Below, in pieces: positions 5,528 through 43,761 of a stretch of DNA of 48,354 bases (the first letter of the stretch is position 1; the number at the start of each line of letters is the position of its first letter). The DNA is from a virus. Lineage: Duplodnaviria > Caudoviricetes. Under the pieces are notes generated by a model. It was not told the DNA's origin. It saw only the letters and a list, made by a program, of their open reading frames with translations, and did not search any database. The position numbers were made by a program, and so were the translations under genes. The stretch is from positions 1 to 48,354 of IMG/VR virus record IMGVR_UViG_3300046789_000072; one strand, 5' to 3'.

Positions 5528-8500
5528 GGCTTCTCCTCTGCGTCGATCAAGTCGACGGCGCGCATCAGTGCATTCATCGCCTTTACCACGGACAGCCGCG
5601 CGATCATGGGCTCCCGTGGCGCAGGGCCGGACATGAGATCTGACCCGTAGCCCAGGTCTCGGCCGCCGCTCTCCTGCGGCGTCTGCGTCCACTCGGACGT
5701 CATGGGCTCGTCCTCGCTGGTGTTCATGATCCCGAGCGCGTACGGCGTGGGCACGTCGAACGGGTTGAGCGCGTTCTGCTTGCTCGACTGATAATTCGTC
5801 ATCGAGTCGAGATGGTTCTGAAAGAAGTCAGACAGGAACGCGTGGAAGGGCCGCGAGGCCCCGCCCATCTCCTTCGACATGCCCTTGAAGTCGTTGCGCA
5901 GCCACTGAAACGCGCGCTCCTTGCTCATGCGCGTGAGGGCCTTTCTCACGTTCGGGGAGTCCTTGAAGATCTCCCGCACGGAGCGGTCGAAGTCGATGTT
6001 TTCCCCGTATTTCTCGAACTTCTCGAACACCTTGTGCAGGCCCTGGACCACCTCCTGCCGCTTGACCTTGTCGAAGCCGGGGAGCTTGTCGTCGGGGCCG
6101 AAGCCGAGCGTCCTGAACATCGTGTCCACGTCGCCCGCCGCCTGGCGCGCGGTGTCCATCAGCTTCCGCTGCTCGGGCGTGACCAGCTCCCTGAGCCGGT
6201 CGAACTTGGGGCCGCCCTCGAGCAGCACCTGGTTCATCGTGATCTGCATCTTCTTGCGCGTGTCCGCCGACATCGTCTCGAAGTTCTGTCCCATGCCCAG
6301 GACGTCGAAGATGTCGCGCCGGTGCTTCTGCTGGACGCGCATCTGCTCCACCTGCTGGCGCACGTTCTTGAAGCTCCCCACCACAGCTTCTGCGTCGCGG
6401 TCTCTGCCGGTGATCCCATCCTCGAGCGACTTGAACGCCTCCGACTGCGTGCGCGGGAGAGCGCCCACGGTGATGTCGAAGGAGGCCGCCCGCTCCGACT
6501 GCGTGGTCAGATCGCGCAGCACCATGTACTCGTTGAACAGGCCGTCGGGGTCCTGGTCGTAGAGCCAGCGCTCGAACTCCTGACGCGGAAGAGCGAGGCC
6601 GCCGGGCGTCTTGATGTGCTCGTCCTTGAGCATGCCCTTGATGTTGCTCAGCACGGTCGTAGCCTGGTCGACGTCGCCGGGGGTGACGTTGGCGACGTTC
6701 TTCTCGAGCCCGATGCTGCGAAGCATCGCCTCGTTGTCCAGGATCTCCAGGTGCTGCCGGCCCTTGAGGTCGGCCTCGAGCTTGAACGCCGACTCGCGCA
6801 GGTCGCGCGCCACGGCGCCGAGGCCCTTGTACCGCGCCGCGTTGGGGTCCGCGGTGTTGTCCGCGTACTTGCTCATCTCGTCGAAGGCCTGGATGATATC
6901 GCCGAGCTCGCGCGCGTGGACCTTGCGCGCGAACTTGACCCTCACCATGCCCTCCTTGGTCACCCTCATGTCCAGGGCGACGTTGTTGTAGAGGGAGGCC
7001 TCCTTCGCGTCGACGACCTTCTCCGTGAAGAGCGAGTCCACCGCCTCCTTGAACTTCTGATGCGTCGCACTCGGCATGTGCGCCCCGTCGTCGAAGGCCA
7101 GGCTTTGGGCGATCCGGAAGTGCTCGTCGATGATCGGCTGCGTGGAGACGGACGGGTAGTCGGTCGTGAGACCGTAGTCGCCCTGTGCCTTCGTTGCGCG
7201 CGCCGCGGCAATCTCCCCGATCATCATGTCCGGGCCCGGGATGGGCGGAGCCTCGGGCACGCCCAGCTGCTGACGAACCCCCCCGAGCTCGCTCGCATGA
7301 CGGTCCATGCGCTCGACCTTCTTGGCGTCCACGAAGTTCATCACCCGCTCCGTGAAGCGGCGGACGCCCTCCTCGGTCTTGAGCGCGGTCTTCGTCTGGT
7401 CGGGGACAAGGAAGTCAGCCGTCGCTTTGACGTCCCTGACCCAGTTGTCGTGCTGGTCGGCGAACGAGCTCGTGAGCTGATCTGACGTGTCGCCCGCAAC
7501 GTCCTGGGCGAGCTTCGTGGCCGGCATCAGGTCGTCGGCCGCAGCCTGCACCGCCTCGTGCTTCGCGCCCTGGTAGGACCCCTCCTCCGGGTATCTCTGC
7601 ACCAGCTCCTCGTGCCCCTCGGGGGCCCGAAGGCCCTTCCAGTTGGCGAACTGGGTGCTCGACTCGTCCGTCCCCTTCTCGAGCCGGTTGTGGTAGGCGC
7701 TCGTCGCGTCGTTGTCCTCGCGCAGGCCCCGCGCGATGCCCTTCGGGGCGCTCAGGACGGTGCCGAGCCCCGCCGACATGAGCCCCGCCTCCGCAGCGCC
7801 CTCGAGCTGGTAGGTGAGGGGGACCTCCTCGAGTCCCGCCTCCGCGCGCACGTCGTTGCGGAGCTCGGAGGTCGCCAGGTTCTCGGCAGCGCCCGTCACG
7901 CCAGCCTCGACGCCGCCGCGTGCCATGCCGCTGATCATGCCCCGACCAGGGGAGAGCCCTTTCATCCCCTTGCCCACAAGCTTGCCGACCATGTTGCCCG
8001 CGCCCTCGGGGACGAGCGACCCGGCCACGTTGCCCGCGAAGTTCCACCCGGGGTTCTCCGCCACCACGCGCTCGCCCTGGGTCATGTTGTGCCGGATGGC
8101 CGCCTGGTCCTCCTCGTCCGAGCCCAGGAAGGCCGGCGGCGGGATGCCCACCGTCTCGAGGGAGTGGCGATAGAAGGCCGGGATGCCCCGGGTGACCTTC
8201 TCTTCGTCGATGGCGTTGCCCACGGTGCCGAAGAGCGCGGCTTCATCGACCCCGCGAAGGAAGGACTCGGAGGAGCGGAGCGCGTCCGAGGTCCACTTCG
8301 CAGTCTGCATGAAGCCGGGCGAGTTCTCGTCGATGTCGCGGCCCCTGTAGATCGGATCGCCGCGCTTCTGCGCGTCGTCGTACGCCAGCGCATACTGCTT
8401 GTCCTTCCACGCCTGCAGGTAGGGGTAGCTGGTCTTCGGCCTCAGCCCCTGCGCCTCAGCTTCGGCGGTCACTCCGGCGATGGCCTCCTCGTCGCTCGGC

Positions 8501-9033
8501 TCGATGTACACAGGGCTCTGCGAGGGCATCACACCCGCGTTCAGGATCTGGTCGCGGAGCACCTGGGGGACGTTCCTCACCATGCTGTCCCACCACGAGC
8601 CGTCCTGCATGGGCCCCGCGGGGTGGCCAGGCACGTGGTTGCTCGGGCGCACGTACGGCTCGGGCGTCTTGTACTCCTTCATGAGCTCGCCGGCCGACTT
8701 CTCCACGGGCGCGGGCCGGGAAGTCACTGTGCTCGTGCCCGTGGCGTAGGCCTCTTCCTCCTTGGCCAGGCTGGACGCCGGGGGCGGCGGCCGGGTGCCA
8801 GGCGGAGGCGTCGGCGGACCCGCGGTGAGGACGGGCTCGTCGGACTCGACATCCGTGACCACGCCAGCATCGGGCGTGCCCGCGTCCACGTCCTGCTCCC
8901 AGGGCCGCTGCTTGAGCGCGGCGGCGCGGTCCTCGGGGCTGATCCCCTCGTCGCCGTTGGTCTCGTACCAGAGCTTGACCCAGGCATCGAGCTGCTTGAC
9001 CGGGTCGTCCGGCGCTTCTTTAGGGGCTCCCAT
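5524..9033 (-). CDS. Large internal virion / DNA ejection protein (1169 aa)
   Basis: Podovirus gene order, size, helical composition and a glycine-zipper segment. Confidence 0.65.
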   Translation of the reverse strand: MGAPKEAPDDPVKQLDAWVKLWYETNGDEGISPEDRAAALKQRPWEQDVDAGTPDAGVVTDVESDEPVLTAGPPTPPPGTRPPPPASSLAKEEEAYATGTSTVTSRPAPVEKSAGELMKEYKTPEPYVRPSNHVPGHPAGPMQDGSWWDSMVRNVPQVLRDQILNAGVMPSQSPVYIEPSDEEAIAGVTAEAEAQGLRPKTSYPYLQAWKDKQYALAYDDAQKRGDPIYRGRDIDENSPGFMQTAKWTSDALRSSESFLRGVDEAALFGTVGNAIDEEKVTRGIPAFYRHSLETVGIPPPAFLGSDEEDQAAIRHNMTQGERVVAENPGWNFAGNVAGSLVPEGAGNMVGKLVGKGMKGLSPGRGMISGMARGGVEAGVTGAAENLATSELRNDVRAEAGLEEVPLTYQLEGAAEAGLMSAGLGTVLSAPKGIARGLREDNDATSAYHNRLEKGTDESSTQFANWKGLRAPEGHEELVQRYPEEGSYQGAKHEAVQAAADDLMPATKLAQDVAGDTSDQLTSSFADQHDNWVRDVKATADFLVPDQTKTALKTEEGVRRFTERVMNFVDAKKVERMDRHASELGGVRQQLGVPEAPPIPGPDMMIGEIAAARATKAQGDYGLTTDYPSVSTQPIIDEHFRIAQSLAFDDGAHMPSATHQKFKEAVDSLFTEKVVDAKEASLYNNVALDMRVTKEGMVRVKFARKVHARELGDIIQAFDEMSKYADNTADPNAARYKGLGAVARDLRESAFKLEADLKGRQHLEILDNEAMLRSIGLEKNVANVTPGDVDQATTVLSNIKGMLKDEHIKTPGGLALPRQEFERWLYDQDPDGLFNEYMVLRDLTTQSERAASFDITVGALPRTQSEAFKSLEDGITGRDRDAEAVVGSFKNVRQQVEQMRVQQKHRRDIFDVLGMGQNFETMSADTRKKMQITMNQVLLEGGPKFDRLRELVTPEQRKLMDTARQAAGDVDTMFRTLGFGPDDKLPGFDKVKRQEVVQGLHKVFEKFEKYGENIDFDRSVREIFKDSPNVRKALTRMSKERAFQWLRNDFKGMSKEMGGASRPFHAFLSDFFQNHLDSMTNYQSSKQNALNPFDVPTPYALGIMNTSEDEPMTSEWTQTPQESGGRDLGYGSDLMSGPAPREPMIARLSVVKAMNALMRAVDLIDAEEKP

Positions 9034-9036
9034 GGA

Positions 9037-11307
9037 TCACTTCCCTGCCGGTGGGGCTGCGCCTGCCGGAGAGGTCCCGCCCATGCCCCGGTACTGGTTG
9101 ACGTTTAGCGGCCCCTTCTTGCCCTTCGGCTTCGGCTTCGGCGCCGGCTCGCCTTCGGTCTTCGGCCCCCTTACGATCACGGTTGCTCCTGTGCGCTCGG
9201 AGCTCGAGGTGGCGCGCGGGGTGCCGTAGCCCACGGCAGCTGCGCCGAGGGGCGGGGCGTTCTTGGCCGCCTCCTCCACCATGCCGTTGATGAGGCCCTG
9301 GGGCATGTCCGGGAAGCTCCGGCGCAAGATCGCCTTGGCCTGCCACGCGCTGGCCTGGGGGGCGACGCTCTGCATGTAGAAGTTCTCGTACACCTGCTGC
9401 GCCATGGACTTGGCCACGATGATCTGCTTCCGACGCTCGCCCACGTTGATGTCTTTGACGACGTCCTCGAGCTGCTTCATGAAGCCCGCGGGGAGCTCGC
9501 CCTCCTCACCGAGGTAACCCCACAGGGTCTCGACGTCGTTCCAGAGACCGGCGCGGAATGACGTCTCCTGGTCCTTGTCCGTCGCTCTGCCGTTGTGAGC
9601 CGCCTTGAGCAGGTCGGTCATCACCTTGCGCTGCTGAAGCGAGCCCGGGTTACTGCGAAGAACAGCGAGGCTGTTGTTCGTGTTGGCGACGGTCTCCTTC
9701 ATCTTCGTGAGCCCCTCGTTCTGGTGGGCGTCGTTCACGATCCTGTCGGCCTGGGCCTGCATCTCCTTCGTGACGTTGAGGAACTCGGTGCGGTCGGCGC
9801 GGTTTTGCGTCTGACCCCTGAACTCCCCGGTCGCGTTGATGCGGATCAGGGACTGCAGGATGTCGAGGTACTTCTTGTCACCCGAAAGGATGAACGACTC
9901 CGCGACGGCCTTGATCTGCTCGTGCTCCTTCTGGGTCGTTCCGAGGCCGGCGATGATCGGCGCAATCTCCTCGCGCCGCTTCTGCATGCGCTTTTCCTGG
10001 ATGGTGGCGAAGTCGCGCGTCGCGAGCTTCTTGCCCGTGCGCCTGTCGTAGATGTCGTGCCCGCCGCTCTGCATCGCGTCACGCAGAGCGCTCGGGGTGA
10101 CGTCCGGCGGCGACTCCGCGAACTCTTTCACGCCCGGGGGCATCTCCACGTTCCACTCGCCCATGCCCTGCGCATCAGGCGGCGCGTTGGGGTCTGCCAC
10201 CGGCCCCGGAGGGACCGCCACGGGGGGCATGCCGTGCACGCGCGCTGCGAAGTTCGCTGCGATGGCGAACGCCGTCGGCGAGAGGCCCATCGTCTTGAGG
10301 GTCTCGATTCGCCTCTGGTAGCTGACCGCCATCTGCGCTTCCGTGGAGATCCGGCTCTGCGACTCCAAGTCCGTCACGGGCTTCATCCGCCTGAGCTGGT
10401 CCTCGGCCTGGGCCAGGTTCGCGGGGGGCATCTTCTGCGACGGCTCGACGTAGGGGTTCTCCTTGTCGGCCTTCGCCGCCTCCTCGGCCGTGGGCGCGGC
10501 CTCCGGAACCGCCGGCACCTTGCCCTCGGTCCTCCCGAGGATGCCGGCCGTGGTCGCAACCTCCGACGCGCCCGTCGTCACCGTAGGCGACGGCATGGGA
10601 GCCGGAGGCACCGCGTTCGGGTCGACTGGCGGCGACGGCATGGGAGCCGGAGGCACGGGAGCCACTCCAGCGGGCGCAGGGGCCCCGCCGACGCGCATCT
10701 CCGACGCTGCGACGGGCGGCACAGTACCAGGCGCGGGCTTCATCTCCGACGCTGCGACGGGCGGCACAGTACCAGGCGCGGGCTTCATCTCCGACGCTGC
10801 GACGGGCGGCACAGTGCCCGCGGGGGCGTCCGGCGAGGGGCCGAGCTCCGCAGTCACCTCGGCTTCCGTCTCCGCGGCGATCTGAGGACCCATCCCCTCT
10901 GGGATGCTGCCCTTGGGCACGATCACCAAGTCGTAGACGCTGCCCGCCATCTCCGCGGCGGTGTCGTAGTCCTCGATCAGGTCCGACTCGGTCCAGGCCT
11001 TGTCGAGGATCGCCATGCCCTCCTCGAGGTCCTCCTGGCGCTTGAACGCCTGGTCGTTCTTCTCCTTCCAGACCTGGTACCGCAACTTGTCTTGCTCGAG
11101 GGCCTGCGCCTGAGCGAACTGGTCGCGCGCCGTCGCGTCGTTTGTGAGCAGGCGCTGCTGCTGCTCGTCGAACTGACGCTTCTGCTCGCGCTCCTGACGA
11201 TGCGCGCGGATCGCGTCCTGCTGACGTGCGGACGTCTGCGAGGCGAGCTGCGCCCAGGGGAGCGCTTCTCCCTCCGGAGCCATGAAATGTTCAGGCGAGA
11301 AAGGCAT
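9037..11307 (-). CDS. Internal virion / ejection protein (756 aa, start MPFSPEH)
   Basis: AAGGAG RBS before 11307; Pro/Ala-rich repeats and coiled coil; gene position. Confidence 0.65.
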   Translation of the reverse strand: MPFSPEHFMAPEGEALPWAQLASQTSARQQDAIRAHRQEREQKRQFDEQQQRLLTNDATARDQFAQAQALEQDKLRYQVWKEKNDQAFKRQEDLEEGMAILDKAWTESDLIEDYDTAAEMAGSVYDLVIVPKGSIPEGMGPQIAAETEAEVTAELGPSPDAPAGTVPPVAASEMKPAPGTVPPVAASEMKPAPGTVPPVAASEMRVGGAPAPAGVAPVPPAPMPSPPVDPNAVPPAPMPSPTVTTGASEVATTAGILGRTEGKVPAVPEAAPTAEEAAKADKENPYVEPSQKMPPANLAQAEDQLRRMKPVTDLESQSRISTEAQMAVSYQRRIETLKTMGLSPTAFAIAANFAARVHGMPPVAVPPGPVADPNAPPDAQGMGEWNVEMPPGVKEFAESPPDVTPSALRDAMQSGGHDIYDRRTGKKLATRDFATIQEKRMQKRREEIAPIIAGLGTTQKEHEQIKAVAESFILSGDKKYLDILQSLIRINATGEFRGQTQNRADRTEFLNVTKEMQAQADRIVNDAHQNEGLTKMKETVANTNNSLAVLRSNPGSLQQRKVMTDLLKAAHNGRATDKDQETSFRAGLWNDVETLWGYLGEEGELPAGFMKQLEDVVKDINVGERRKQIIVAKSMAQQVYENFYMQSVAPQASAWQAKAILRRSFPDMPQGLINGMVEEAAKNAPPLGAAAVGYGTPRATSSSERTGATVIVRGPKTEGEPAPKPKPKGKKGPLNVNQYRGMGGTSPAGAAPPAGK
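10586..10815. repeat. Intragenic 45-bp-period tandem repeats
   Basis: About 2.7 exact copies at 10696-10815 (PAPGTVPPVAASEMK), and 26-bp copies at 10586 and 10631 (VPPAPMPSP). Confidence 0.9.
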
Positions 11308-34983: not shown

Positions 34984-35295
34984 GTCCCAAGTCTTTGAGG
35001 CAGAATTTGCACAGAGGTGGGTACCGCGCCAGCGGTCTCCCTCTCCTCCCGGGGGGGTGCCGCCTCGGCGGCGCACCTGCCTGAAGAGACGCGCTTGCGC
35101 GCGCGTGCGCGTGCACGTGAAGTAACCGTGCGGAGGCGCTGCGCGCGTGTGGTTCACTCCGAGCCGAGAGCCGAGCCGAGCAGGAGGGGGGCACCCCCGG
35201 GAAACGCGCGTGCGCGCGTCTGGAGACTCTCAGATCTGAGGGTTGGCAAGAGCCAACACTGCCTGTAGTCAGCACTCCTCAGCGGCCTGGCCGCA

Positions 35296-35400
35296 TGACA
35301 AAATACGTCACTTCTCGGCGCAAAACGTCAGGTGCTCTTTCCGCAGCAATCTCAACCCGATCACCCGATTGGGTGATCTAGCATCCGGCGTAGAACGTCA
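35296..35400. promoter_or_regulatory. Three YGRC-N7-GTCA boxes and a perfect palindrome
   Basis: TGACAAAATACGTCA (35296), CGGCGCAAAACGTCA (35316), CGGCGTAGAACGTCA (35386); GATCACCC-gatt-GGGTGATC (35359-35378). Confidence 0.55.
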
Positions 35401-35453
35401 CCCTAAGGTGTGGTTTGCGTAGAGTACCTTACGCTCTAGGGGGGGGTTTCGAG

Positions 35454-35471
35454 CTGGCACGCGGGCTGCAA
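35454..35471 (+). promoter_or_regulatory. Sigma54-type promoter (-24/-12) facing the early genes
   Basis: CTGGCACG-CGGG-CTGCAA with exact GG-N10-GC spacing. Confidence 0.55.
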
Positions 35472-35875
35472 TAGGCCCTTGTCGAGCGACGATGACACGG
35501 ACGGACGGTGAGCGACGGTGCACCCCGATGCACTGCCCACCCAGGCGAGCGGCTCCGGCCATTCCCCTGCGAACACTCCCTCGGTAGGGAGCTGCCTGCT
35601 ACGGCGCGCAACTGCGCGCTTCTGAAAACCTGGCTGAGCCTGCTACGAGTGCGCGAGAGAACGCGTGTGGCGTAGACGCTTGCAGCCGCAACACGCATCG
35701 GCACGCCTCACAAGCGCGCCATGCCGACTGGCCTCGCTGAGACACCTTGCCCGCCGATCGCTCCATGTGAAGCGCGGGACGTCGCAAGGGACTCGCAGGC
35801 CGCACGCAAGCTCTGTAGCTTGCTCGCTGCGCAGTGACTCTCACGAGTGCTGCGCAGCCGGGAGGATACAGACCA

Positions 35876-35956
35876 ATGACTGATCGCATCATCGCACTTT
35901 CCATCTCTCTCACGACCCTTGGCACCGTGCTCGCTTTCCTCACGGTGTCGCTGTGA
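35876..35956 (+). CDS. 26-aa single-TM peptide, not in the ORF track
   Basis: MTDRIIALSISLTTLGTVLAFLTVSL; GGAGG RBS; GTGA-coupled to the next ORF. Confidence 0.6.
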   Translation: MTDRIIALSISLTTLGTVLAFLTVSL

Positions 35957-36171
35957 GGCTCTACCACACGGCAATCGCGCTGCTTGACGCCGGCGACAGC
36001 GCCATGGTGCAGCTCGAGAACGACTACGATGAGAAAGACCGCGGGCAGCGTAGCCTGGTTTCTGGGCTCATCTGCAAGCGAGTAGCTGTTCACTCTAGCC
36101 ACTCGGGCGTGAGCGCGTTCGAGGGCGCTGTCGTCCGCGCTTCCGTGGATTGCGCGTTCTACCGCAAGTGA
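35953..36171 (+). CDS. Hypothetical early protein
   Basis: GTGA coupling to the preceding peptide. Confidence 0.5.
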   Translation: MRLYHTAIALLDAGDSAMVQLENDYDEKDRGQRSLVSGLICKRVAVHSSHSGVSAFEGAVVRASVDCAFYRK

Positions 36172-36220
36172 CCCGCTAGCCCGCATGACTCCCGAGTCGT
36201 GCGAGGCGCTGAGGTGACAC

Positions 36221-36445
36221 ATGCATCCCGATGAGATTGAAGAGATGGAATACGCTGCTTTCGCGCACAGTGACTACCTGCGCGAAGCCTACGGACCGAC
36301 GGCGCGCGACGCGGACCGGTTCTACGATTGGGGCGACGTCGAGCCATTCGTGGGCCCGCGGTCCGCGCGCTACTGCTCGCACACCATCGCGTGCGTGACT
36401 GCACTGCTCGTGTGCTTTGGCTACTTCGACGAGATTCCGTTCTGA
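36221..36445 (+). CDS. Small acidic early protein ending in DEIPF
   Basis: GAGGT RBS; SSB-like C-terminal tail. Confidence 0.7.
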   Translation: MHPDEIEEMEYAAFAHSDYLREAYGPTARDADRFYDWGDVEPFVGPRSARYCSHTIACVTALLVCFGYFDEIPF

Positions 36446-36496
36446 ACGCTGCTTGCTGCTCCCGACCACGGTCGGGCGCAGCCGGGAGGTTTCAAC

Positions 36497-36697
36497 ATGG
36501 ATCGATTCGATATCTGCGATGCGTTCTACGTGTTCGGCGTGCTCTGGCATGACGGCCAGGACAGCAAGGCCTACGGCTACCTGAGCCGACTCACGCGCAT
36601 GGGCTACAAGCCGGGCCTGTCGGCCGAGCGCTGCAAGCTCACGAGCGAGGGCGCGCGCGCGGTCTACCGCGAGCTTTGCAAGGCGCACGGGTGCTGA
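36497..36697 (+). CDS. Hypothetical early protein (DRFDIC..Y...WH.GQ.S..Y..LSRL)
   Basis: GGAGGT RBS; motif common in small phage early proteins. Confidence 0.7.
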   Translation: MDRFDICDAFYVFGVLWHDGQDSKAYGYLSRLTRMGYKPGLSAERCKLTSEGARAVYRELCKAHGC

Positions 36698-36698
36698 C

Positions 36699-37166
36699 AT
36701 GAAAACCACGCACACCAGCCACAGCACAGGGTCCGATGATGGCCTGTGGACGCACCTTGACGGGCATACCGTCTACACGATCGAGTTTTCCTACTGGGAA
36801 GATCTCGACTCCAGCGCCATCGCCACGCACGGGAAGTACAACGTGCAAGCGGGCTACGTGGAAGTCCCCGACATCGAGTCCACCGACGTGCGCGATGCGC
36901 GCGTGCTCGCAGAGATGCATGGCGCGCTGCGCTTCTGCGGATACGAGCTACACGCCCAGACTGGCGCCATCGTGAACGAGTATGACGGCGCCCTCGTGTG
37001 CGAGCGCGGTACGGCGCGCACCAGCTCCGAAGGGCGCAAGGCGCGCCGTCGTTGGCTGCTGTGTGTCGCGGAGTGCATGTGGCGCTATGGCGCCAAGCAC
37101 GTCACCTGCGACGTGAGCGGCAACAACCGCCGCAAGCTCATGCGTGAAGCGCACTGCTCCTTTTGA
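36699..37166 (+). CDS. Hypothetical early protein
   Basis: Coupled to the upstream ORF. Confidence 0.65.
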   Translation: MKTTHTSHSTGSDDGLWTHLDGHTVYTIEFSYWEDLDSSAIATHGKYNVQAGYVEVPDIESTDVRDARVLAEMHGALRFCGYELHAQTGAIVNEYDGALVCERGTARTSSEGRKARRRWLLCVAECMWRYGAKHVTCDVSGNNRRKLMREAHCSF

Positions 37167-37217
37167 AGGCTCGATTGGGCGCGTGACCGTGGGTCGCGCT
37201 TCCGCATGGAGGTTTCA

Positions 37218-37460
37218 ATGAAGCTGTCTTTTGCAACTGTCTACATGCTCGCGAACCTGGGCGATCCGTCGGCTATCGAAGCGCGCACCCTGCTCGCACG
37301 CACGCCTGGCCTCGTGCCCTACGTGCGCACGGACGGCACCATCGCTGTGCGCGATACCGTCTACCTCACGCGCGGCTTTGTGCGCCAGATCGTGGGCGCC
37401 ATGGCACTCTGCGGCTACGTGCTCGGCACTGTCTCCGAGGCGCTTCTCACCCTGCCCTGA
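37218..37460 (+). CDS. Hypothetical protein with C-terminal TM segment (80 aa)
   Basis: GGAGGT RBS before ATG at 37218. Confidence 0.65.
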   Translation: MKLSFATVYMLANLGDPSAIEARTLLARTPGLVPYVRTDGTIAVRDTVYLTRGFVRQIVGAMALCGYVLGTVSEALLTLP

Positions 37461-37512
37461 CGCTACTTGCTTGCTGCGCGCGAACCCTCGCGCGTAGCCG
37501 GGAGGTAACGAC

Positions 37513-37866
37513 ATGGCCGACACAAGCAACACTGCAGACGTGATTGACTCGCGCGACGTGATCGCACGCATTGAAGAGCTGGAGAACAACGAAGAGCGCA
37601 CGGAGCACGAGGCCATCGAGCTTGTGGACCTGCGCAAGCTCGCCACCTACGGCGAGTCCTACATCGATGACTGGCAGTACGGCGCACAACTCGTGCGCGA
37701 GTCCTACTTCGAGACGCACGCACACGAGCTGGCTGACGATTGCGGCATGATCTCCAGGGATGCCAAGTGGCCACACACGTGCATCGATTGGAAGTGGGCC
37801 GCGCGCGAGCTGATGCACGACTACACGGCCCTCGATTACGATGGGGTCACGTACTATGTCCGCTGA
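37513..37866 (+). CDS. ArdA-like antirestriction (DNA-mimic) protein
   Basis: Very acidic; F...A.ELADDCG...IDW..AAREL..DY...DYDGVTYY resembles the ArdA C-terminal domain. Confidence 0.65.
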   Translation: MADTSNTADVIDSRDVIARIEELENNEERTEHEAIELVDLRKLATYGESYIDDWQYGAQLVRESYFETHAHELADDCGMISRDAKWPHTCIDWKWAARELMHDYTALDYDGVTYYVR

Positions 37867-38044
37867 GCGCAAGCCCTTCGCCTTCCGCCGCGACCTGGAC
37901 TTGCTGCTCTTCAGGCATGGCCACATGGTTGTGCGCCGGTTCAAGTACACGCGCACGGGTAGCAGTGGTGACGAGCACAGCTACCATGAGGCCACGCGCG
38001 AATATGACGCGGCCTACGAGGCTTTTGTCGACACGTACAAGTGA
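37856..38044 (+). CDS. Hypothetical protein (62 aa)
   Basis: Overlap-coupled ORF. Confidence 0.55.
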   Translation: MSAERKPFAFRRDLDLLLFRHGHMVVRRFKYTRTGSSGDEHSYHEATREYDAAYEAFVDTYK

Positions 38045-38097
38045 CGTCGCCTGCTCCTGCACACGAGCCTGCTCGGGTGCGGCATGGAGGTTACGAC

Positions 38098-38472
38098 ATG
38101 AAGAAGCTGAAGAAGGAACACCGCACCAAGATCGATGCCGCGCAGACGTACGTGGAGGAAAAGCGCGCGGCCTACACCGAGGCAGCCGAGCGTGCCAACG
38201 AGATCATCGCGGAATGCCAGGCCGCGCTCGACGATCTGCGCAGCGCCATCGAGAGCTACAACGAGTCCATGACCGAGATTGCGGATGAGGCACAGGCCTA
38301 CTTCGACGATCGCTCGGACGCATGGCGCGATGGGGACGCTGGGGAGCTGTACTCGAGCTGGATCGAGGCCTTCCGCACGGAGATGGAAGTGCCGGAGCCT
38401 GAGCTGAACGAGCTGGATGAGCTGCACGACCTGGACTACCCCGAAACGCCCGAAAACCCGGATGAGGTGTGA
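38098..38472 (+). CDS. Acidic coiled-coil early protein (YFDDRSDAWRDGDAG)
   Basis: GGAGGT RBS. Confidence 0.7.
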   Translation: MKKLKKEHRTKIDAAQTYVEEKRAAYTEAAERANEIIAECQAALDDLRSAIESYNESMTEIADEAQAYFDDRSDAWRDGDAGELYSSWIEAFRTEMEVPEPELNELDELHDLDYPETPENPDEV

Positions 38473-38488
38473 GATAGGATGCGGGCCC

Positions 38489-38770
38489 ATGGCCTCACTC
38501 CCACGCTCAGGCAAACGCATCACCAAACCCCGCAGCTACGTGGCCATCGGCCTGGCCAGGCGCGTAGCTGCCCCACGCGGCAAGCATGCAGGCATCTCAC
38601 GCCTCGCGCGCTCCCTCACGGAAGCGTCGATCCGCAACGTGCGTGCGCACGCTGTAGAGCACGCAAACCACCCTCTCATGTTCGCATGCGACCGTGCCCT
38701 AGCAGGCTCGGAGCGTGCACGCGTGGCCATCGCACGCTGGCTCTCAGGAGGTGAACCCAAGTCACGTTAG
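38489..38770 (+). CDS. Basic hypothetical protein (93 aa)
   Basis: Fills the gap and stops inside hairpin 7; weaker codon bias. Confidence 0.45.
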   Translation: MASLPRSGKRITKPRSYVAIGLARRVAAPRGKHAGISRLARSLTEASIRNVRAHAVEHANHPLMFACDRALAGSERARVAIARWLSGGEPKSR

Positions 38771-38815
38771 CTGCGGCCTGCACCCGAGCATTCTCGGGCG
38801 CAGAGCGGAGGTAAC

Positions 38816-39583
38816 ATGAACGACAAATCCAAGATCATCGATCGCATCCAGAAGCTTCTCGCCCTCGCGCAGAGCGACAACGTGAACGAGGCCTCTGCGG
38901 CCGCTGCGGCTGCCCAGAAGCTCATGACCACGCACGACATCGAGCAGGCCGCGCTCGACGTCGACACGGGTGCAGACGTGGACGTCGTGGTCGGCAGCGA
39001 AGTGCTGCATGCCCTGGGCAGCAAGGTGTGCTCGTGGAAGGGCATCCTGGCCCACGCCCTCGCGGAGGCCAACGGCGCGAAGACCTACTGGCACAAGGCC
39101 TACGAGGGCCCGTCGCTCGTGGCCTCGCTCAAGATCATCGGCACGAAAGACCAGTCCAATACCGTCCGCTACCTGTTCGCCTACCTGGTCAACGAGGTGG
39201 AGCGCCTGGCGCGCGAAGCGCCTGGCAAGCGCACGGGTTCCACGCGCTCCTGGTACGCGAGCTTCCGCCTCGGAGCCGCAAGCGAGATTGCAGACCGCGT
39301 GCAGAAGGCAGCCCGGCAGGCAGTGCAGGAGGTGAAGCAGGAGGCAGCCGCGAGCAACGGCGCCTCCCTCGTGCGGGTCAACGACGCCCTTGCGCGCATC
39401 GATGCCCGCACGGCAGCCATTCGCGCCCACGCGAAGACGCTGCATCTCCGCTCCGGGCGCAGCTCGCGCGTGAGCGACCACAACGGCTACGTGGCTGGCA
39501 AGGCTGCTGGAGCGACCGTGCGGCTCGGAGGCGGTCCGAGCCTGGGTGCAGGCGCCAAGGGCGCCATTGGAGGTGGACGATGA
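38816..39583 (+). CDS. DUF2786-domain protein
   Basis: KIIDRIQKLLALAQS.N.NEA.AA...AQKLM, followed by SFRLG and GY.AG motifs. Confidence 0.85.
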   Translation: MNDKSKIIDRIQKLLALAQSDNVNEASAAAAAAQKLMTTHDIEQAALDVDTGADVDVVVGSEVLHALGSKVCSWKGILAHALAEANGAKTYWHKAYEGPSLVASLKIIGTKDQSNTVRYLFAYLVNEVERLAREAPGKRTGSTRSWYASFRLGAASEIADRVQKAARQAVQEVKQEAAASNGASLVRVNDALARIDARTAAIRAHAKTLHLRSGRSSRVSDHNGYVAGKAAGATVRLGGGPSLGAGAKGAIGGGR

Positions 39584-39807
39584 GCAAGTATCGCAAGGGC
39601 GCACGGGTGCGCCTGATCGGAACGGACCGGTGCGGGGCCGTGGAGCGCGCGCGTGGTGGATGTATCCCCAGCACCAGCGACGCCCGCACGTTCAAGCTGT
39701 TGGGCGTGTCGGATAGCTACCGCGTCACGTGGGACGACGGCGAGGTTGGCTCCCACTGGGGCGTCGAGCTGGAGCGCGCGCCCAGGCGCCTCGCCAAGAA
39801 GGACTGA
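39580..39807 (+). CDS. Small SH3-like protein (75 aa)
   Basis: KGARVR...G.V...YRVTWDDG......LE; ATGA coupling. Confidence 0.6.
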   Translation: MSKYRKGARVRLIGTDRCGAVERARGGCIPSTSDARTFKLLGVSDSYRVTWDDGEVGSHWGVELERAPRRLAKKD

Positions 39808-39864
39808 CACGCCGCTTGCTCCTGCGTTCGACCACGGTCGCGCGCAGCGTGGAGGTTACGAGTC

Positions 39865-40581
39865 ATGAAGAAGAAGCCGCACGGCATCCTGTGGGAGGGC
39901 CCGAGTCCCTTCGACGGCGCGCCCATCGTGGCCATATCCGTATGGTCGAACGCCAATCGCAAGACCGGTGCATGTGCACAGGTGTACATCATTCGCGCGG
40001 ACGTCGCGCCCGTGGAGGCTATCCGCAGGGGGGACGACATCTCTGTGTGCGTCTACTGTCCCATGCGCGGGCCGTACGGGTACGAAGGTCGCTCCTGCTA
40101 CGTGCAGGTCGGCAACGGACCGACCAGCGTCTACCGCACCTATATTGCGGGCAAATACGAGCAAATCGACGCTTCGCACTTCGACGGCGTGGTTGTACGC
40201 TGGGGTGCGTACGGAGATCCCGCGATGTTGCCAGAAGCAGTCGTCACGAGCGTGAACGCGCGCGTAAGCGGACGCCTGGGGTACACCCACCAGTGGCGTT
40301 TTCCATGGGCTAGCTGGACGCGTGGAGTGTTCATGGCGAGCGTCGAAACCGAGGCGCAGGAAACGAAAGCGCGCACGCTGGGCTGGGGCACTTTTCGTGC
40401 TGGCGCGAGCGACGGATCTGATATGGGTAGCTCCGTTGTCTGCAACAACGAGCGCACGGGCGTCACGTGCGTGGAGTGCGGAGCGTGCGACGGACGGGCG
40501 GCATCGATCGTCATCCCGGCGCACGGGTGGGGTAAGGGGAACGTTCCCGCGAACCGGCTACTGCGGAAGCGGGCAGCGTGA
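39865..40581 (+). CDS. Cys-rich putative Fe-S protein (Gp88-like / atypical radical-SAM-like)
   Basis: N.KTG, CVYCP...SCY, RWGAYGD, GYTHQW, MASVE, C-x8-CxxCxxC, AHG. Confidence 0.65.
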   Translation: MKKKPHGILWEGPSPFDGAPIVAISVWSNANRKTGACAQVYIIRADVAPVEAIRRGDDISVCVYCPMRGPYGYEGRSCYVQVGNGPTSVYRTYIAGKYEQIDASHFDGVVVRWGAYGDPAMLPEAVVTSVNARVSGRLGYTHQWRFPWASWTRGVFMASVETEAQETKARTLGWGTFRAGASDGSDMGSSVVCNNERTGVTCVECGACDGRAASIVIPAHGWGKGNVPANRLLRKRAA

Positions 40582-40647
40582 AAGTCACTCGGGCGGGTGA
40601 GCATGTGCTCGCGTTGCCTCATGGGATTTTCAGCGAAAGGACGTGAC

Positions 40648-40884
40648 ATGGAAGGCCAGAGAGTGCAGCAGGCGATCGACGACAGCATCCGCGAGGATCG
40701 CATCGTCACGCTGCGCGCAACTGTCGATACGCAGGAGTGGGTGGACCTGGTCACGGAGCTGGGCAGCCGCTCCGATGACTGGGTTGATGCCGGGCATGGA
40801 TTGCGCGAGTACTGGGGCTCCGATGACGACGGAGACCTGTGGCGCGTTCATGTCCTGAGCCCGGCTGCCGAGGTGGAGCCATGA
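40648..40884 (+). CDS. Hypothetical protein (78 aa)
   Basis: AAAGGA RBS; EYWG...WRVH motif. Confidence 0.65.
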   Translation: MEGQRVQQAIDDSIREDRIVTLRATVDTQEWVDLVTELGSRSDDWVDAGHGLREYWGSDDDGDLWRVHVLSPAAEVEP

Positions 40885-41161: not shown

Positions 41162-41697
41162 TGGGCACGCAGCTGAGCATGTTCGAGGCGGGTGGTCCTG
41201 GCCTGAGCAGCGTGAAGCTGGACTGGTGCACGCCTGCGTGCGTGCTGGAGCGTGTGCTGCGGGTGGGCCCCATCGCGCTCGACCCGTGCACGAACGCGCT
41301 CAACCCCTGCGGCGCCTCGGTCTTTTACACGGAGGCGGACAACGCCTTCTTGCAGAGCTGGGAGACCATGCAGAGCTGGGAGACTACGGGGCTCATTTAC
41401 GTGAACCCTCCCTACGGCAGGCAGCTGCACAAATGGGTCTCGCGCGTGTGCCTCGCCGCCGCGCCTGGCGCGAACGAGATCATCATGCTCACCCCTGCGC
41501 GACCGGACACAGTCTGGTGGGGCGAAGCGTTCGACGCGTGCCAGGCCGTTGCGCTCTGGCGCGGCCGGCTTACGTTCGTAAACGCACCCGCGTCTGCACC
41601 CTTCCCTTCGTGCCTGTTCTACTTCGGGGAGCGTGCGCAGCGGTTCAAGCGCGCGTTCGAGGACAGGGCTCGCGTGCTCTCAGGTGGCCGTGCGTAA
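41161..41697 (+). CDS. Phage DNA N6-adenine methyltransferase (Dam/T1-type, 178 aa)
   Basis: W.TP, LDPC, NPPY, PAR.DT.WW, GRL.F, APFPS; 18-bp tandem duplication at 41351-41384 (QSWET twice). Confidence 0.9.
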   Translation: MGTQLSMFEAGGPGLSSVKLDWCTPACVLERVLRVGPIALDPCTNALNPCGASVFYTEADNAFLQSWETMQSWETTGLIYVNPPYGRQLHKWVSRVCLAAAPGANEIIMLTPARPDTVWWGEAFDACQAVALWRGRLTFVNAPASAPFPSCLFYFGERAQRFKRAFEDRARVLSGGRA

Positions 41698-41709
41698 ACC
41701 CTTCGAGCC

Positions 41710-41731
41710 CTCTCACCCGCAAGTGTGAGAG
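41710..41731. promoter_or_regulatory. Palindrome upstream of the recombination/replication genes
   Basis: CTCTCAC-N8-GTGAGAG followed by a TAGGCT -10-like hexamer. Confidence 0.4.
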
Positions 41732-41761
41732 TGTTCCATAGGCTTTATGAAAGGAACGAAG

Positions 41762-42703
41762 ATGATGGACAACGTGAACGAAGGAAGCGGGGAGGTGGAC
41801 GTGCGTACCGTCGTCCGCTCCATCGCGAATGACATGGTGCAGAAGGCGCCCGAGCCGCGCCGCGTGCGCGAAGAGGACATCTACACGCGCCCCACGGTGA
41901 GCGACTTCGAGGAGCGCGGCACCGAGTCGCAGATCGCGGCCCTGTACAGCGCCCTGGCGTCCGCGCGCGGCAGCTTCGGTGAGGTGAAGCGCACCCGCGA
42001 GGTGGAGGTGAGGAAGGACAACCGCCTTCTGTACAAGTTCAGGTACGCCCCCATGGAGGTGATGCTCGCTGCGACGACGGCGCCGCTCACCGCCAACGGA
42101 CTGGTGCTGCTCATGCCGTTCGTGACGGGCAATGACCAGATCACCAAGCAGCTGGTGATCCTCGCGCACGCGCATGGCGGTCGCCTGGTTTTCAAGTTCG
42201 AGTTCACGCCTGCGGGTGAAGAGAAGCAATTTGGTGGCCAGACCACCTACCTCCAGCGCTACTGCTACCGCTCCGTGCTGGTGCTCGCGGCCGACGGCGA
42301 CATGGACGAGGGCCACGTGCACGGCGACGTTGCGGTCGAAGCCCAGGACGCGAAGCGTCCCACGGGTCCCGTGAGTGTCAGGCGCCCTGGGCCTGCAGAG
42401 CGCACCCTGGCACGCGAGAGGAGCGATCCCCGCGGCGACTTCGTGAAGGCGCCTGGCACGCCCTCGAGCGCGAAGCACGCGACCCTGCTCGGCGACATGC
42501 TGGCGCTGGCGAAGAAGGTCGGGCTCAACGTGCGCAGCCAGGTGGCGCTGTTCGTGTACGACACCGTCAACGGCGGCACGCCCTTCGGAATCGGCGACGG
42601 GCCCGACTTCTGCGCGGAGCTCACCGTGGAGCAGCTCGAGACGTGCCTCGAGACGCTCAACCAGCGGCTCATCCAGCAGAGCCAGAAGGTGGGGGCCAAG
42701 TGA
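41762..42703 (+). CDS. ERF-family single-strand annealing protein
   Basis: FRYA......A...PL.ANGL, L.H..G, FGGQTTYLQRY, DGDMD. Confidence 0.85.
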   Translation: MMDNVNEGSGEVDVRTVVRSIANDMVQKAPEPRRVREEDIYTRPTVSDFEERGTESQIAALYSALASARGSFGEVKRTREVEVRKDNRLLYKFRYAPMEVMLAATTAPLTANGLVLLMPFVTGNDQITKQLVILAHAHGGRLVFKFEFTPAGEEKQFGGQTTYLQRYCYRSVLVLAADGDMDEGHVHGDVAVEAQDAKRPTGPVSVRRPGPAERTLARERSDPRGDFVKAPGTPSSAKHATLLGDMLALAKKVGLNVRSQVALFVYDTVNGGTPFGIGDGPDFCAELTVEQLETCLETLNQRLIQQSQKVGAK

Positions 42704-43761
42704 AGGCCCGCATGTCGTCTCTGCCCGTCCTGCAGTTCTGCGGGCAGGCGCAGATCATGTCGGCCAAGGGCGCCGGCAACACCAACACGGACGTCGGCAC
42801 GGCCTACCATGCCAAGTGCTCGGGGGCGGAGAACGCCGCGGAGCTCGCCGCAAGGCTGAGCGACGAACAGCAGAGCGAGCTGGCAAGCCTCATCGCCCCG
42901 ATCGCCACCCTGGCGAACGCGGACCCCGCGGCTGCGTGCCTCTGGCTCGAGTACGCGGACGCCCACAAGGAGATCCCGGTGGGCCTGACTGCGCAGGGCT
43001 CGTTCTGCGAGAAGGACTCCGAGGAGGCCATCCTGGACGGGACGTGCGACCTGTACTGGGTGGTCGACCACCGCGCGTTTGGCGGCAAGCGGATCGCCTA
43101 CGTCGCGGACCTGAAGAAGTCTGCATACGCCGCGCCCGACGGCGCACGCACTCTGCAGGCTGTCGGCTACGCCATCGCCATCGCGGCGCGCGAGGACTGC
43201 GACGGCTACGTGACCGGCATCTGGGACGCCACGGAAGGCGTCTGGGACTGGACCGGCTACGTGGACGGGTGGAGCGAGCAGGCCGAGAAGAATCTCGACC
43301 GGGTGATCGCCGCGGCGCGCAACTACGGAGGCGAGTTCAATGTCGGCACGCACTGCTCGAGTTGCTACGGGCGCCCGCACTGCCCGCAGTACCTGCTCCC
43401 CGTCGAGCTGGCCGAGACCTCGCTTGCGCCGTTCACCCACAAGGGCGGCATCACCCACGAGAACGCCCTTGAGGCCCTGGTGCTCGCGAAGCGAGCTGCC
43501 GACACCGCGAAGAGGGTCGAAGACCTGGTCAAAGCGTACGCACGCGAGCAGGGGGGCCTCGTGGACCCCGAGCGCCAGAAGATCTGGAAGCCGGTGCGCT
43601 CACGCGGACGGGCGTCGCTAGACCGCAAACGCCTCGAGCGCGACCAGCCGGAGATCATCGAGCAGTACACTGTCTTCGGGGCCGACTTCGAGTCGTTCAA
43701 GTGGGTCAACCACACGGTGCCCGAGGCGATCACGCCGCGGCTGGGTGAGGGCGAGCCGTGA
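42700..43761 (+). CDS. PD-(D/E)xK exonuclease, Cas4/RecB-like with Fe-S cysteines (353 aa)
   Basis: N-terminal C, GT..H, E, GTCD, DLK, Q..GYA, CxxC-x5-C; adjacent to ERF. Confidence 0.85.
   Translation: MKARMSSLPVLQFCGQAQIMSAKGAGNTNTDVGTAYHAKCSGAENAAELAARLSDEQQSELASLIAPIATLANADPAAACLWLEYADAHKEIPVGLTAQGSFCEKDSEEAILDGTCDLYWVVDHRAFGGKRIAYVADLKKSAYAAPDGARTLQAVGYAIAIAAREDCDGYVTGIWDATEGVWDWTGYVDGWSEQAEKNLDRVIAAARNYGGEFNVGTHCSSCYGRPHCPQYLLPVELAETSLAPFTHKGGITHENALEALVLAKRAADTAKRVEDLVKAYAREQGGLVDPERQKIWKPVRSRGRASLDRKRLERDQPEIIEQYTVFGADFESFKWVNHTVPEAITPRLGEGEP

Follow-up and report, generated by a model that had tools for sequence, protein, structure and literature searches.

What is the function of the hairpins that, one after the other, occupy the spacers between the small + strand genes of an uncultured phage? 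The question is raised by the virus record IMGVR_UViG_3300046789_000072, a complete genome of 48,354 nt with direct terminal repeats, referred to here as the window. An original prediction, made from the letters alone, had described eight such hairpins (E1-E8) between 35.8 and 39.9 kb, interpreting them as a switch, which buries the Shine-Dalgarno sequence (SD) of each following gene. All eight were confirmed, in both position and upper stem, while the array turned out to be longer, since two more elements, E9 and E10, were found (Table 1). The ten hairpins are proposed, by analogy with the sites found between the early genes of phage T7 and with a probability of roughly 0.55, to be sites where a host RNase III-type enzyme would process the message of an early operon.

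E1-E8 were folded as RNA, on the + strand, and each was compared with 300 dinucleotide shuffles: folding is individually significant for six of the eight elements, E6 and E8 being borderline. As a background, a z-score of -1.7 or lower is found in 5.8%, and of -3 or lower in 2.5%, of 121 tiled 57-nt windows. E9 and E10, identified by a blind scan for rods anchored to a stop codon, feature the same build as E1-E8. Three late-strand spacers (35-140 nt) and the spacer between the helicase and SSB genes fold no better than shuffled sequences. The + strand fold is lower in energy than the - strand fold in nine of the ten elements; when DNA parameters are used folding is weaker, and E8 is then no better than its shuffles.

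All ten rods share one build: the upper stem, of 11-12 bp except for the longer one of E1, is closed by a short apical loop, and the lower part is interrupted. In agreement with the original description, the 5' base of E2-E8 lies at the upstream stop codon, the helix starting 0-2 nt from its first base; overall, a stop codon is located at the base of nine of the ten rods. E1 is the exception: no open reading frame (ORF) of at least 20 amino acids (aa) ends at its base and no credible gene is present upstream; the sole ORF ending inside it has no SD, and a contig from a sister strain shows a frameshift in it. The Rfam search recommended at the outset, run over 34.4-41 kb, gave no match at the gathering score: the best hit, Chloroflexus-1, reaches 15.7 bits, as opposed to the 181.5 required (E = 1.4).

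RNase III sites of T7 are designated R0.3, R0.5, R1 and R1.3. The T7 early spacers, folded from the fetched T7 record, show the same build as the rods of the window: long imperfect intergenic rods, in an operon containing an anti-restriction gene, with about one helical turn of upper stem and a short loop. One of them begins on the stop codon of gene 0.4. The internal loop ACUC/UAUGA ends three T7 stems of 9-10 bp, and at the same position this 4x5 loop is echoed in the window by GCUC/CAUGG in E6, GCUC/CGUGG in E8 and ACUC/CAUGG in E9. The T7 analogy, drawn in the original prediction, gains support. For R1.1, an experimentally studied T7 site (PMC1540722, PMC8708148), the cut is reported at nt 5887 (PMC8708148), which corresponds to the third base past the upper stem. 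When this register is transferred to the window, GGAGG follows at once in E1 and E3-E8 (seven of the eight, E2 not being listed), while in E9 a T7-like leader is left before the gene. A helix of 11-12 bp is described as the minimum for E. coli RNase III (PMC1540722, PMC8708148), and a 12-bp stem with a tetraloop as enough for the cleavage of a single strand (PMC8708148); internal loops confine cutting to a single bond, so that a 3' hairpin remains as protection (PMC1540722). In the predicted folds the helix has the required length, about 11-12 bp or more from the apical loop to the cut, inside a longer rod. Large-scale mapping suggests that structure outweighs sequence (PMC8708148).

The elements, putative members of the T7-type RNase III sites, thus likely work like one of them. 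Nicking 3 nt beyond the upper stem would leave the upstream RNA capped by a 3' hairpin, and would release the RNA of the downstream gene. The spacers of E1-E8 are so compact that the weak lower stem has the SD as its 3' side, and the nick is predicted at the first G of GGAGG, that is, at the 5' edge of the SD. As a secondary effect, the SD would then be freed, either by the cut or by a ribosome that terminates on the 5' arm. The arrangement differs from that of T7 in several respects: the 3' side of the lower stem is made up of the SD in eight of the ten rods, and the predicted cut consequently falls at the SD, rather than at least 20 nt ahead of it; three copies feature a nearly paired 5x5 region; and the phage is temperate and uncultured, its cut being predicted from folds. 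Three features are particular to this phage: compaction brings the predicted cut onto the SD, E1-E8 and E9-E10 contrast with each other within one genome, and a stem has apparently been swapped between copies, as described below.

The lock originally proposed, with genes kept silent by burial of the SD, gains no support. Burial is probably not the conserved feature, because E9 and E10 share the build of the other rods and yet leave the SD just beyond the helix. Nor is opening the start regions of E1-E8 significantly more costly than opening 31 further starts chosen from the ORF lists, the median cost being 9.3 and 8.4 kcal/mol, respectively (p = 0.10). Freeing the six SD bases requires 3.9-9.0 of 25-39 kcal/mol in E1-E8, 1.4 in E9 and 0.5 in E10. 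For E2-E8, the opening cost of 7.8-12.9 kcal/mol decreases to 3.6-7.3 when the stop codon and 9 nt are masked, and to 3.3-6.0 after a modelled cut 3 nt ahead of the SD.

The sequence frame ascribed to the hairpins is present only in part. GC[CT]TGCT is found in five of the eight (E1, E3, E5, E6, E8) and GGAGGT in six (E3-E8); the bulged G described opposite the SD is not seen in the minimum-energy fold, where a 1x1 G.G mismatch is formed, the bulged-G register being an alternative. GCWGC-like half sites occur in both arms, and the apex of E3 is identical to that of E8. Covariation was evaluated on an alignment of seven copies, E1 being left out as longer, with a structure derived from the same sequences: 90% of the cells are paired and a two-sided change is found in 7 cells (0 of 500 shuffles), while only three of the 13 pairs contain such a change, a number reached by 93 of 500 shuffles. 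Of five measures of pairing and two-sided change, three stand above the shuffles (at most 1 in 500). The upper stem holds every two-sided change; the helix that pairs with the SD has none.

Similar rods were looked for in 91 loci, made up of 80 viral loci with ArdA-like relatives (the best 80 of 185) and of 11 of the 12 regions of capsid-related phages. The same detector, applied to sense, antisense and shuffled junctions, reported stop-anchored rods at 75 of 650, 6 of 280 and 1 of 284 of them, respectively. The SD is inside the helix in 11 of the 75 rods and outside in 64; in an earlier run of the detector it was inside in 10 of 53 rods within arrays, six of these in locus L096. Two or more rods are present in 16 of the 91 loci, some of them near-duplicates. 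For 13 of the 80 loci a rod directly precedes the ArdA-like gene, and in none of the 13 is the SD inside. The closest analogue of the compacted form is L096 (665-6864), from an unrelated phage, where six rods carry the SD (GGAGG) in the 3' arm, one of them ahead of a DUF2786 gene, as E7. Both L096 and the window phage, for E1-E8, have the appearance of compacted forms, with a lower stem turned into the SD. In L183 (genome G004, capsid 57% identical), three stop-anchored rods with G.G mismatches and the SD outside the helix lie at 7625-9724; the G.G mismatch and a GCUC/AUGG loop are kept there, with the SD far outside.

The hairpins had also been suggested to act as joints for the exchange of gene cassettes, an idea that gains support from contigs of sister strains, aligned to the region (the differences listed are part of all those present). 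A 323-nt contig (X4 record 1) spans E3 and both neighboring genes. When compared by eye, it features all 7 differences separating the E5 upper stem from that of E3, while the outer bases and flanks of E3 are kept; two further differences fall within the element. An E3 contig with an E5-type stem would imply, in either direction, an exchange between copies; an assembly chimera is unlikely, because the shared stretches are too short. A second contig (X4 record 7) fits the window only at 39804-39911; ahead of the E8 stop codon, 189 of its bases are unlike those of the window, and the last 30 form an open frame running into that codon. It may be read as another gene ahead of the same E8 hairpin, a junction seen in one low-depth contig. 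As a by-product, the repeated rods would likely provide short homologies for gene conversion and for cassette exchange; the ERF/RecE pair encoded at 41762..43761 is a plausible engine for it. Runs X5-X7 contribute small shares, consisting of short pieces of the region.

A number of observations weigh against processing by RNase III, or against parts of the picture built around it. When the E. coli determinants, which may not be those of the host enzyme, are read by eye in the T7 register, G-C at pb1 and U-A at pb2 fit most copies. The A-U pair at pb3, an E. coli preference (PMC1540722), fits no copy, and neither does U-A/U-G in the distal box, where C-G and G-C are found instead in E3 and E5-E8. 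At pb4, a G-C pair, which is a catalytic antideterminant, is present in E1, E3 and E5, and a mismatch in E6-E9. The B. subtilis enzyme shares the E. coli preferences (PMC11780869), and the departures at pb3 and in the distal box are therefore harder to dismiss. The stems of the window are also much richer in G-C than those of T7. As to the loop, a gap-free scan scores E6 at 6/9, E8 and E9 at 5/9 and the other elements at 2-4, E9 reaching 7/9 when read by eye across its bulge. Scores of at least 6/9 are found in two of 1008 stems of the genome, one being E6; in other loci they occur in 67 of 7527 sense and 57 of 8306 antisense cases, with no enrichment, and the T7 loop word was rejected as a general marker. 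The loop copies are moreover paralogous, not independent, and their likeness to T7 is suggestive only. A cut leaving the SD at the extreme 5' end might not help translation. The rods of other phages are analogues, without proven homology: a covariance model trained on the window (R1) matched no rod in the 91 loci (best E 0.23) and gave only three weak matches (E 0.01-0.09) in 26 capsid-related records; within the window it found no copy outside the array, recovered E1 only at E 0.09 and missed E9 and E10. Of the genome-specific switch originally envisaged, it is the sequence family that is specific to the genome, the architecture being shared with other phages. Finally, the evidence for exchange comes from single contigs, with a depth of about 3.5, and the alignments, which break off at E1 and E4, also do so at places with no hairpin.

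Known systems featuring similar hairpins were compared with the array. The attC core motifs are RYYYAAC and GTTRRRY: each is present in none of the ten elements, and the integrase, scanned over the gene part at 68-1018, scores 35.7 bits with TIGR02249, against a cut-off of 265, its relatives carrying PF14659. The N4 promoter consists of a short template-strand hairpin, used by a virion RNA polymerase; here the template (-) strand folds worse in nine of ten elements, and no RNA polymerase family was found among the 56 ORFs scanned. Frpo/ssi promoters are large single-stranded DNA folds, which rebuild -35/-10 hexamers in conjugative leading regions; no hexamer pair is found in the rods, 50-70 nt long, and the genome, with its terminase and portal genes, is that of a tailed phage. 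The two promoter analogies, both part of the original prediction, are not supported. In T4-type SD-masking hairpins, a promoter inside the hairpin produces short transcripts without the 5' arm; within the hairpins of the window no sigma-70 site was detected and, by eye in E1, E3, E5, E6 and E8, no sigma-54 GG-N10-GC spacing. Bacillus phages SP82 and SPO1 have RNase III sites concerned with host takeover, SP82 with an SD-type 5' stabilizer, in modules also carrying repeated strong promoters. They resemble the window in that processing stems are repeated between small early genes, and that an SD near the processed 5' end could stabilize the downstream piece; no such promoters were found in the window at 34-42 kb. 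Mutations in the SP82 ribosome-binding site are reported to shorten half-life (PMC7509114). With attC sites (PMC5737381) the rods have in common low sequence conservation and a location between cassette-like genes, starting at stop codons; they differ in the absence of R''/R' cores and of an integron integrase, and in favoring the top, not the bottom strand. PeSLs, similarly, are repeated stop-to-start modules with a stem-loop and an SD, set around variable ORFans and acting as exchange points (PMC2839356, PMC4122927). Their defining parts, however, are a sigma-70 promoter, a stem-loop that terminates transcription and, upstream, an AT-rich portion (PMC2839356), none of which was detected in the single 50-70 nt rods of the window; the number of sigma-70 promoter-like sites in 34-42 kb is 0, in a search not covering other promoter types.

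The nearest form of the original switch is translational coupling, or insulation, without any cutting. A ribosome terminating on the upstream gene would melt the lower stem, exposing the SD, and the upper stem would stay, bringing stop and start codons together; alternatively, the rod may be a ribosome termination structure. This is a real alternative, which could also coexist with cutting, because in the models for E2-E8 the terminating ribosome lowers the opening cost about as much as the cut does. Cases such as MS2 coat-lysis and rpmI-rplT (PMC12548453) and ribosome termination structures (PMC7518266) similarly feature a structure extending from the stop codon over the next SD. They differ from the window rods, where the strong part of the fold ends short of the SD and would survive the terminating ribosome, and from the many analogues that leave the SD free. 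Coupling by unfolding is reported to work at spacings of about +50 nt (PMC12548453), and structures right after stop codons to govern re-initiation (PMC7518266). The stop codon at the base of nine of the ten rods fits well with this. As an explanation dispensing with the cut, coupling is nevertheless held to be rather unlikely: E1 has no credible upstream gene; the SD is outside the helix in E9, in E10 and in most rods elsewhere; the buried SDs are not significantly harder to open than other starts; and the helix they form is devoid of two-sided changes.

It is improbable that the rods act as partial terminators, pause sites or blocks to 3' exonucleases, generating a stepped gradient of message along the operon. 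They lack a U-tract, although U-less terminators occur in GC-rich bacteria, and they are stable structures placed right after stop codons; PeSL stem-loops of T4-type phages, in addition, do terminate transcription (PMC2839356). Yet no terminator-like site is found on the + strand at 34-42 kb (the five detected, at chance level, are all on the - strand), nor is a sigma-70-type promoter available for restart, and little message would be left for the ERF, helicase and SSB genes beyond ten consecutive terminators not interrupted by a promoter. Even less probable is a role mainly as DNA, be it as attC-like single-stranded recombination sites, single-stranded promoters or palindromes bound by a repressor in the lysogen. 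The exchange seen at E3 and E8 in sister strains, the integrase, ERF and helix-turn-helix proteins of a temperate phage and the half sites in both arms would suit such a role. The attC cores are missing, however, the part of the integrase gene scanned is far below the integron cut-off, and no RNA polymerase family was found among the 56 ORFs scanned; the elements fold more weakly as DNA, E8 no better than its shuffles, and better on the message strand in nine of ten cases. Both the spacing of the half sites and the inner sequence vary, with pairing kept, and the fold therefore fits better than a protein site.

Should the RNase III cut be real, T7-style processing of messages would extend to a temperate, GC-rich soil phage, with a prediction exact to the base: processed 5' ends at the first G of the SD. 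It would become testable whether processing hairpins control translation gene by gene, or only stabilize messages. How a single 55-nt spacer can combine a stop codon, a processing site, an SD and homology for recombination would also be shown, and the modular turnover of phage accessory genes would be easier to understand. Should nothing more than coupling or stabilization be involved, the array is a neat but ordinary case of compaction. A broader proposal, which we regard as doubtful, is that stop-anchored rods are an uncatalogued, widespread punctuation of phage early operons: a compacted cut at the edge of each SD would make translation of the cassettes dependent on host RNase III, so that a temperate phage would read the state of its host gene by gene, the rods serving also as homogenizing, swappable joints for its own recombinase. 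In a literature search, with older subscription papers poorly covered, no paper was found to describe arrays of this kind from uncultured phages.

The positions of the ten hairpins and of the neighboring genes are reported in Table 1. The window encodes integrase, terminase, portal, capsid, head-closure and tail-spike proteins and, because of this gene set, is classified from its sequence as a temperate tailed phage. Small ORFs follow one another on the + strand from about 35.9 kb, and after them come genes for Dam methylase, ERF, RecE-like nuclease, helicase and SSB; judging from position only, the small ORFs are probably expressed early. The DNA runs carrying the window stretch are from soil and rhizosphere; run X1 may be the source of the window, and run X2 contains identical pieces.

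Table 1. Hairpins of the array and neighboring genes. z, folding score relative to dinucleotide shuffles.
Feature	Position	Strand	z	Remarks
E1 hairpin	35812..35872	+	-4.5	SD GGAGGA at 35861, in 3' arm
E1-following ORF	35876-35956	+		26 aa, hydrophobic
ORF between E1 and E2	35953-36171	+		its stop codon opens E2
E2 hairpin	36169..36215	+	-3.2	SD TGAGGT; begins at stop of ORF 35953-36171
ORF after E2	36221-36445	+
E3 hairpin	36443..36494	+	-4.9	SD at 36485
ORF after E3	36497-36697	+
E4 hairpin	37164..37217	+	-3.8	SD at 37208
ORF after E4	37218-37460	+
E5 hairpin	37458..37513	+	-5.0	SD at 37501; ahead of ArdA-like gene
ArdA-like acidic protein, 117 aa	37513..37866	+		downstream of E5
E6 hairpin	38042..38098	+	-1.7 (p=0.066)	SD at 38086; 4x5 loop GCUC/CAUGG
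Acidic phage protein, 124 aa	38098-38472	+		downstream of E6
E7 hairpin	38768..38813	+	-3.6	SD at 38807
DUF2786/DUF7168 gene	38816-39583	+		downstream of E7
E8 hairpin	39805..39864	+	-1.8 (p=0.063)	SD at 39851; loop GCUC/CGUGG
phrog_2554 gene	39865-40581	+		downstream of E8
E9 hairpin	40579-40632	+	-3.7	SD outside helix; loop ACUC/CAUGG
ORF after E9	40648-40884	+
E10 hairpin	41695-41747	+	-4.4	SD outside helix; after Dam methylase gene, ahead of ERF gene
ERF-like single-stranded DNA annealing protein and RecE-like exonuclease genes	41762..43761	+		PHROG 2324, E=3e-15; PHROG 434, E=2.5e-4

The genes behind the hairpins had been described as anti-defence genes, which is borne out, by a weak match, for one of them: the ArdA-like gene is matched by PHROG 2059, an anti-restriction family (E = 0.0012), and 27 of the 48 aligned members of its own family match, weakly, PF07275 ArdA at E <= 0.01. 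The protein itself has no match in Pfam or PDB, and no other gene behind E1-E8 resembles an anti-defence gene. The product of 38098-38472 is very acidic and predicted to be helical, with look-alikes only among unnamed viral clusters; a role as DNA mimic is a guess.

Searches for close relatives of the region were mostly negative. By blastn, no match was found among annotated phages. The element pattern gave 15 matches in viral sequences, none of them convincing, 0 and 0 in two further viral scans, and 9 in metagenomes, none from members of the clade; scans with single proteins yielded only distant loci or none. The hairpin-array region is absent from G001, a relative with a 94% identical capsid. 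A further relative, of 49,391 nt, is represented in the protein index (P0009, P0125). Another one (L172 / G005:C171; 47,435 nt), whose capsid is 61% identical and whose helicase is related, was binned with Planctomycetota; since this contig seems to be an entire phage, the bin does not indicate the host.

Spacers of other kinds were also encountered. In L022 (8094-11677), nine near-identical two-hairpin spacers, starting with TTGAC, separate microgenes, and may be a promoter-type cassette, different from the element of the window. Caulobacter phage CcrSC (L194) and Citromicrobium phage RXM (L197) feature, between terminal small genes, repeated spacers with a hairpin, GTTAACC-type palindromes and a TTGAC-type promoter word: these modules, from phages of alphaproteobacteria, are similar to PeSLs. 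Spacers of other kinds prevail in cultured phages that have an ArdA-like gene, and hand-picked spacers of Phlei and RS-PII-1 fold into no clear rod; a single strong stop-anchored rod (z -6.6) is present in one cultured phage, Gordonia phage Abscondus (L195, 2297-2386).

Upstream of the array, about 830 nt (34984-35811) without convincing genes separate two divergent units, and contain CGCG-rich palindromes, short repeats and a G run. Promoters are probably located here, and perhaps an origin; no sigma-70 consensus was found in this stretch. Elsewhere in the window, the integrase is seemingly split by the ends of the record (68-1018 and about 48.0-48.35 kb), an identical protein of 428 aa being indexed as P0241. 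About 560 nt past the integrase gene, at 1582-1627 on the - strand, the 3' half of a tRNA-Pro-like sequence may be read by eye, which is likely to represent attP.

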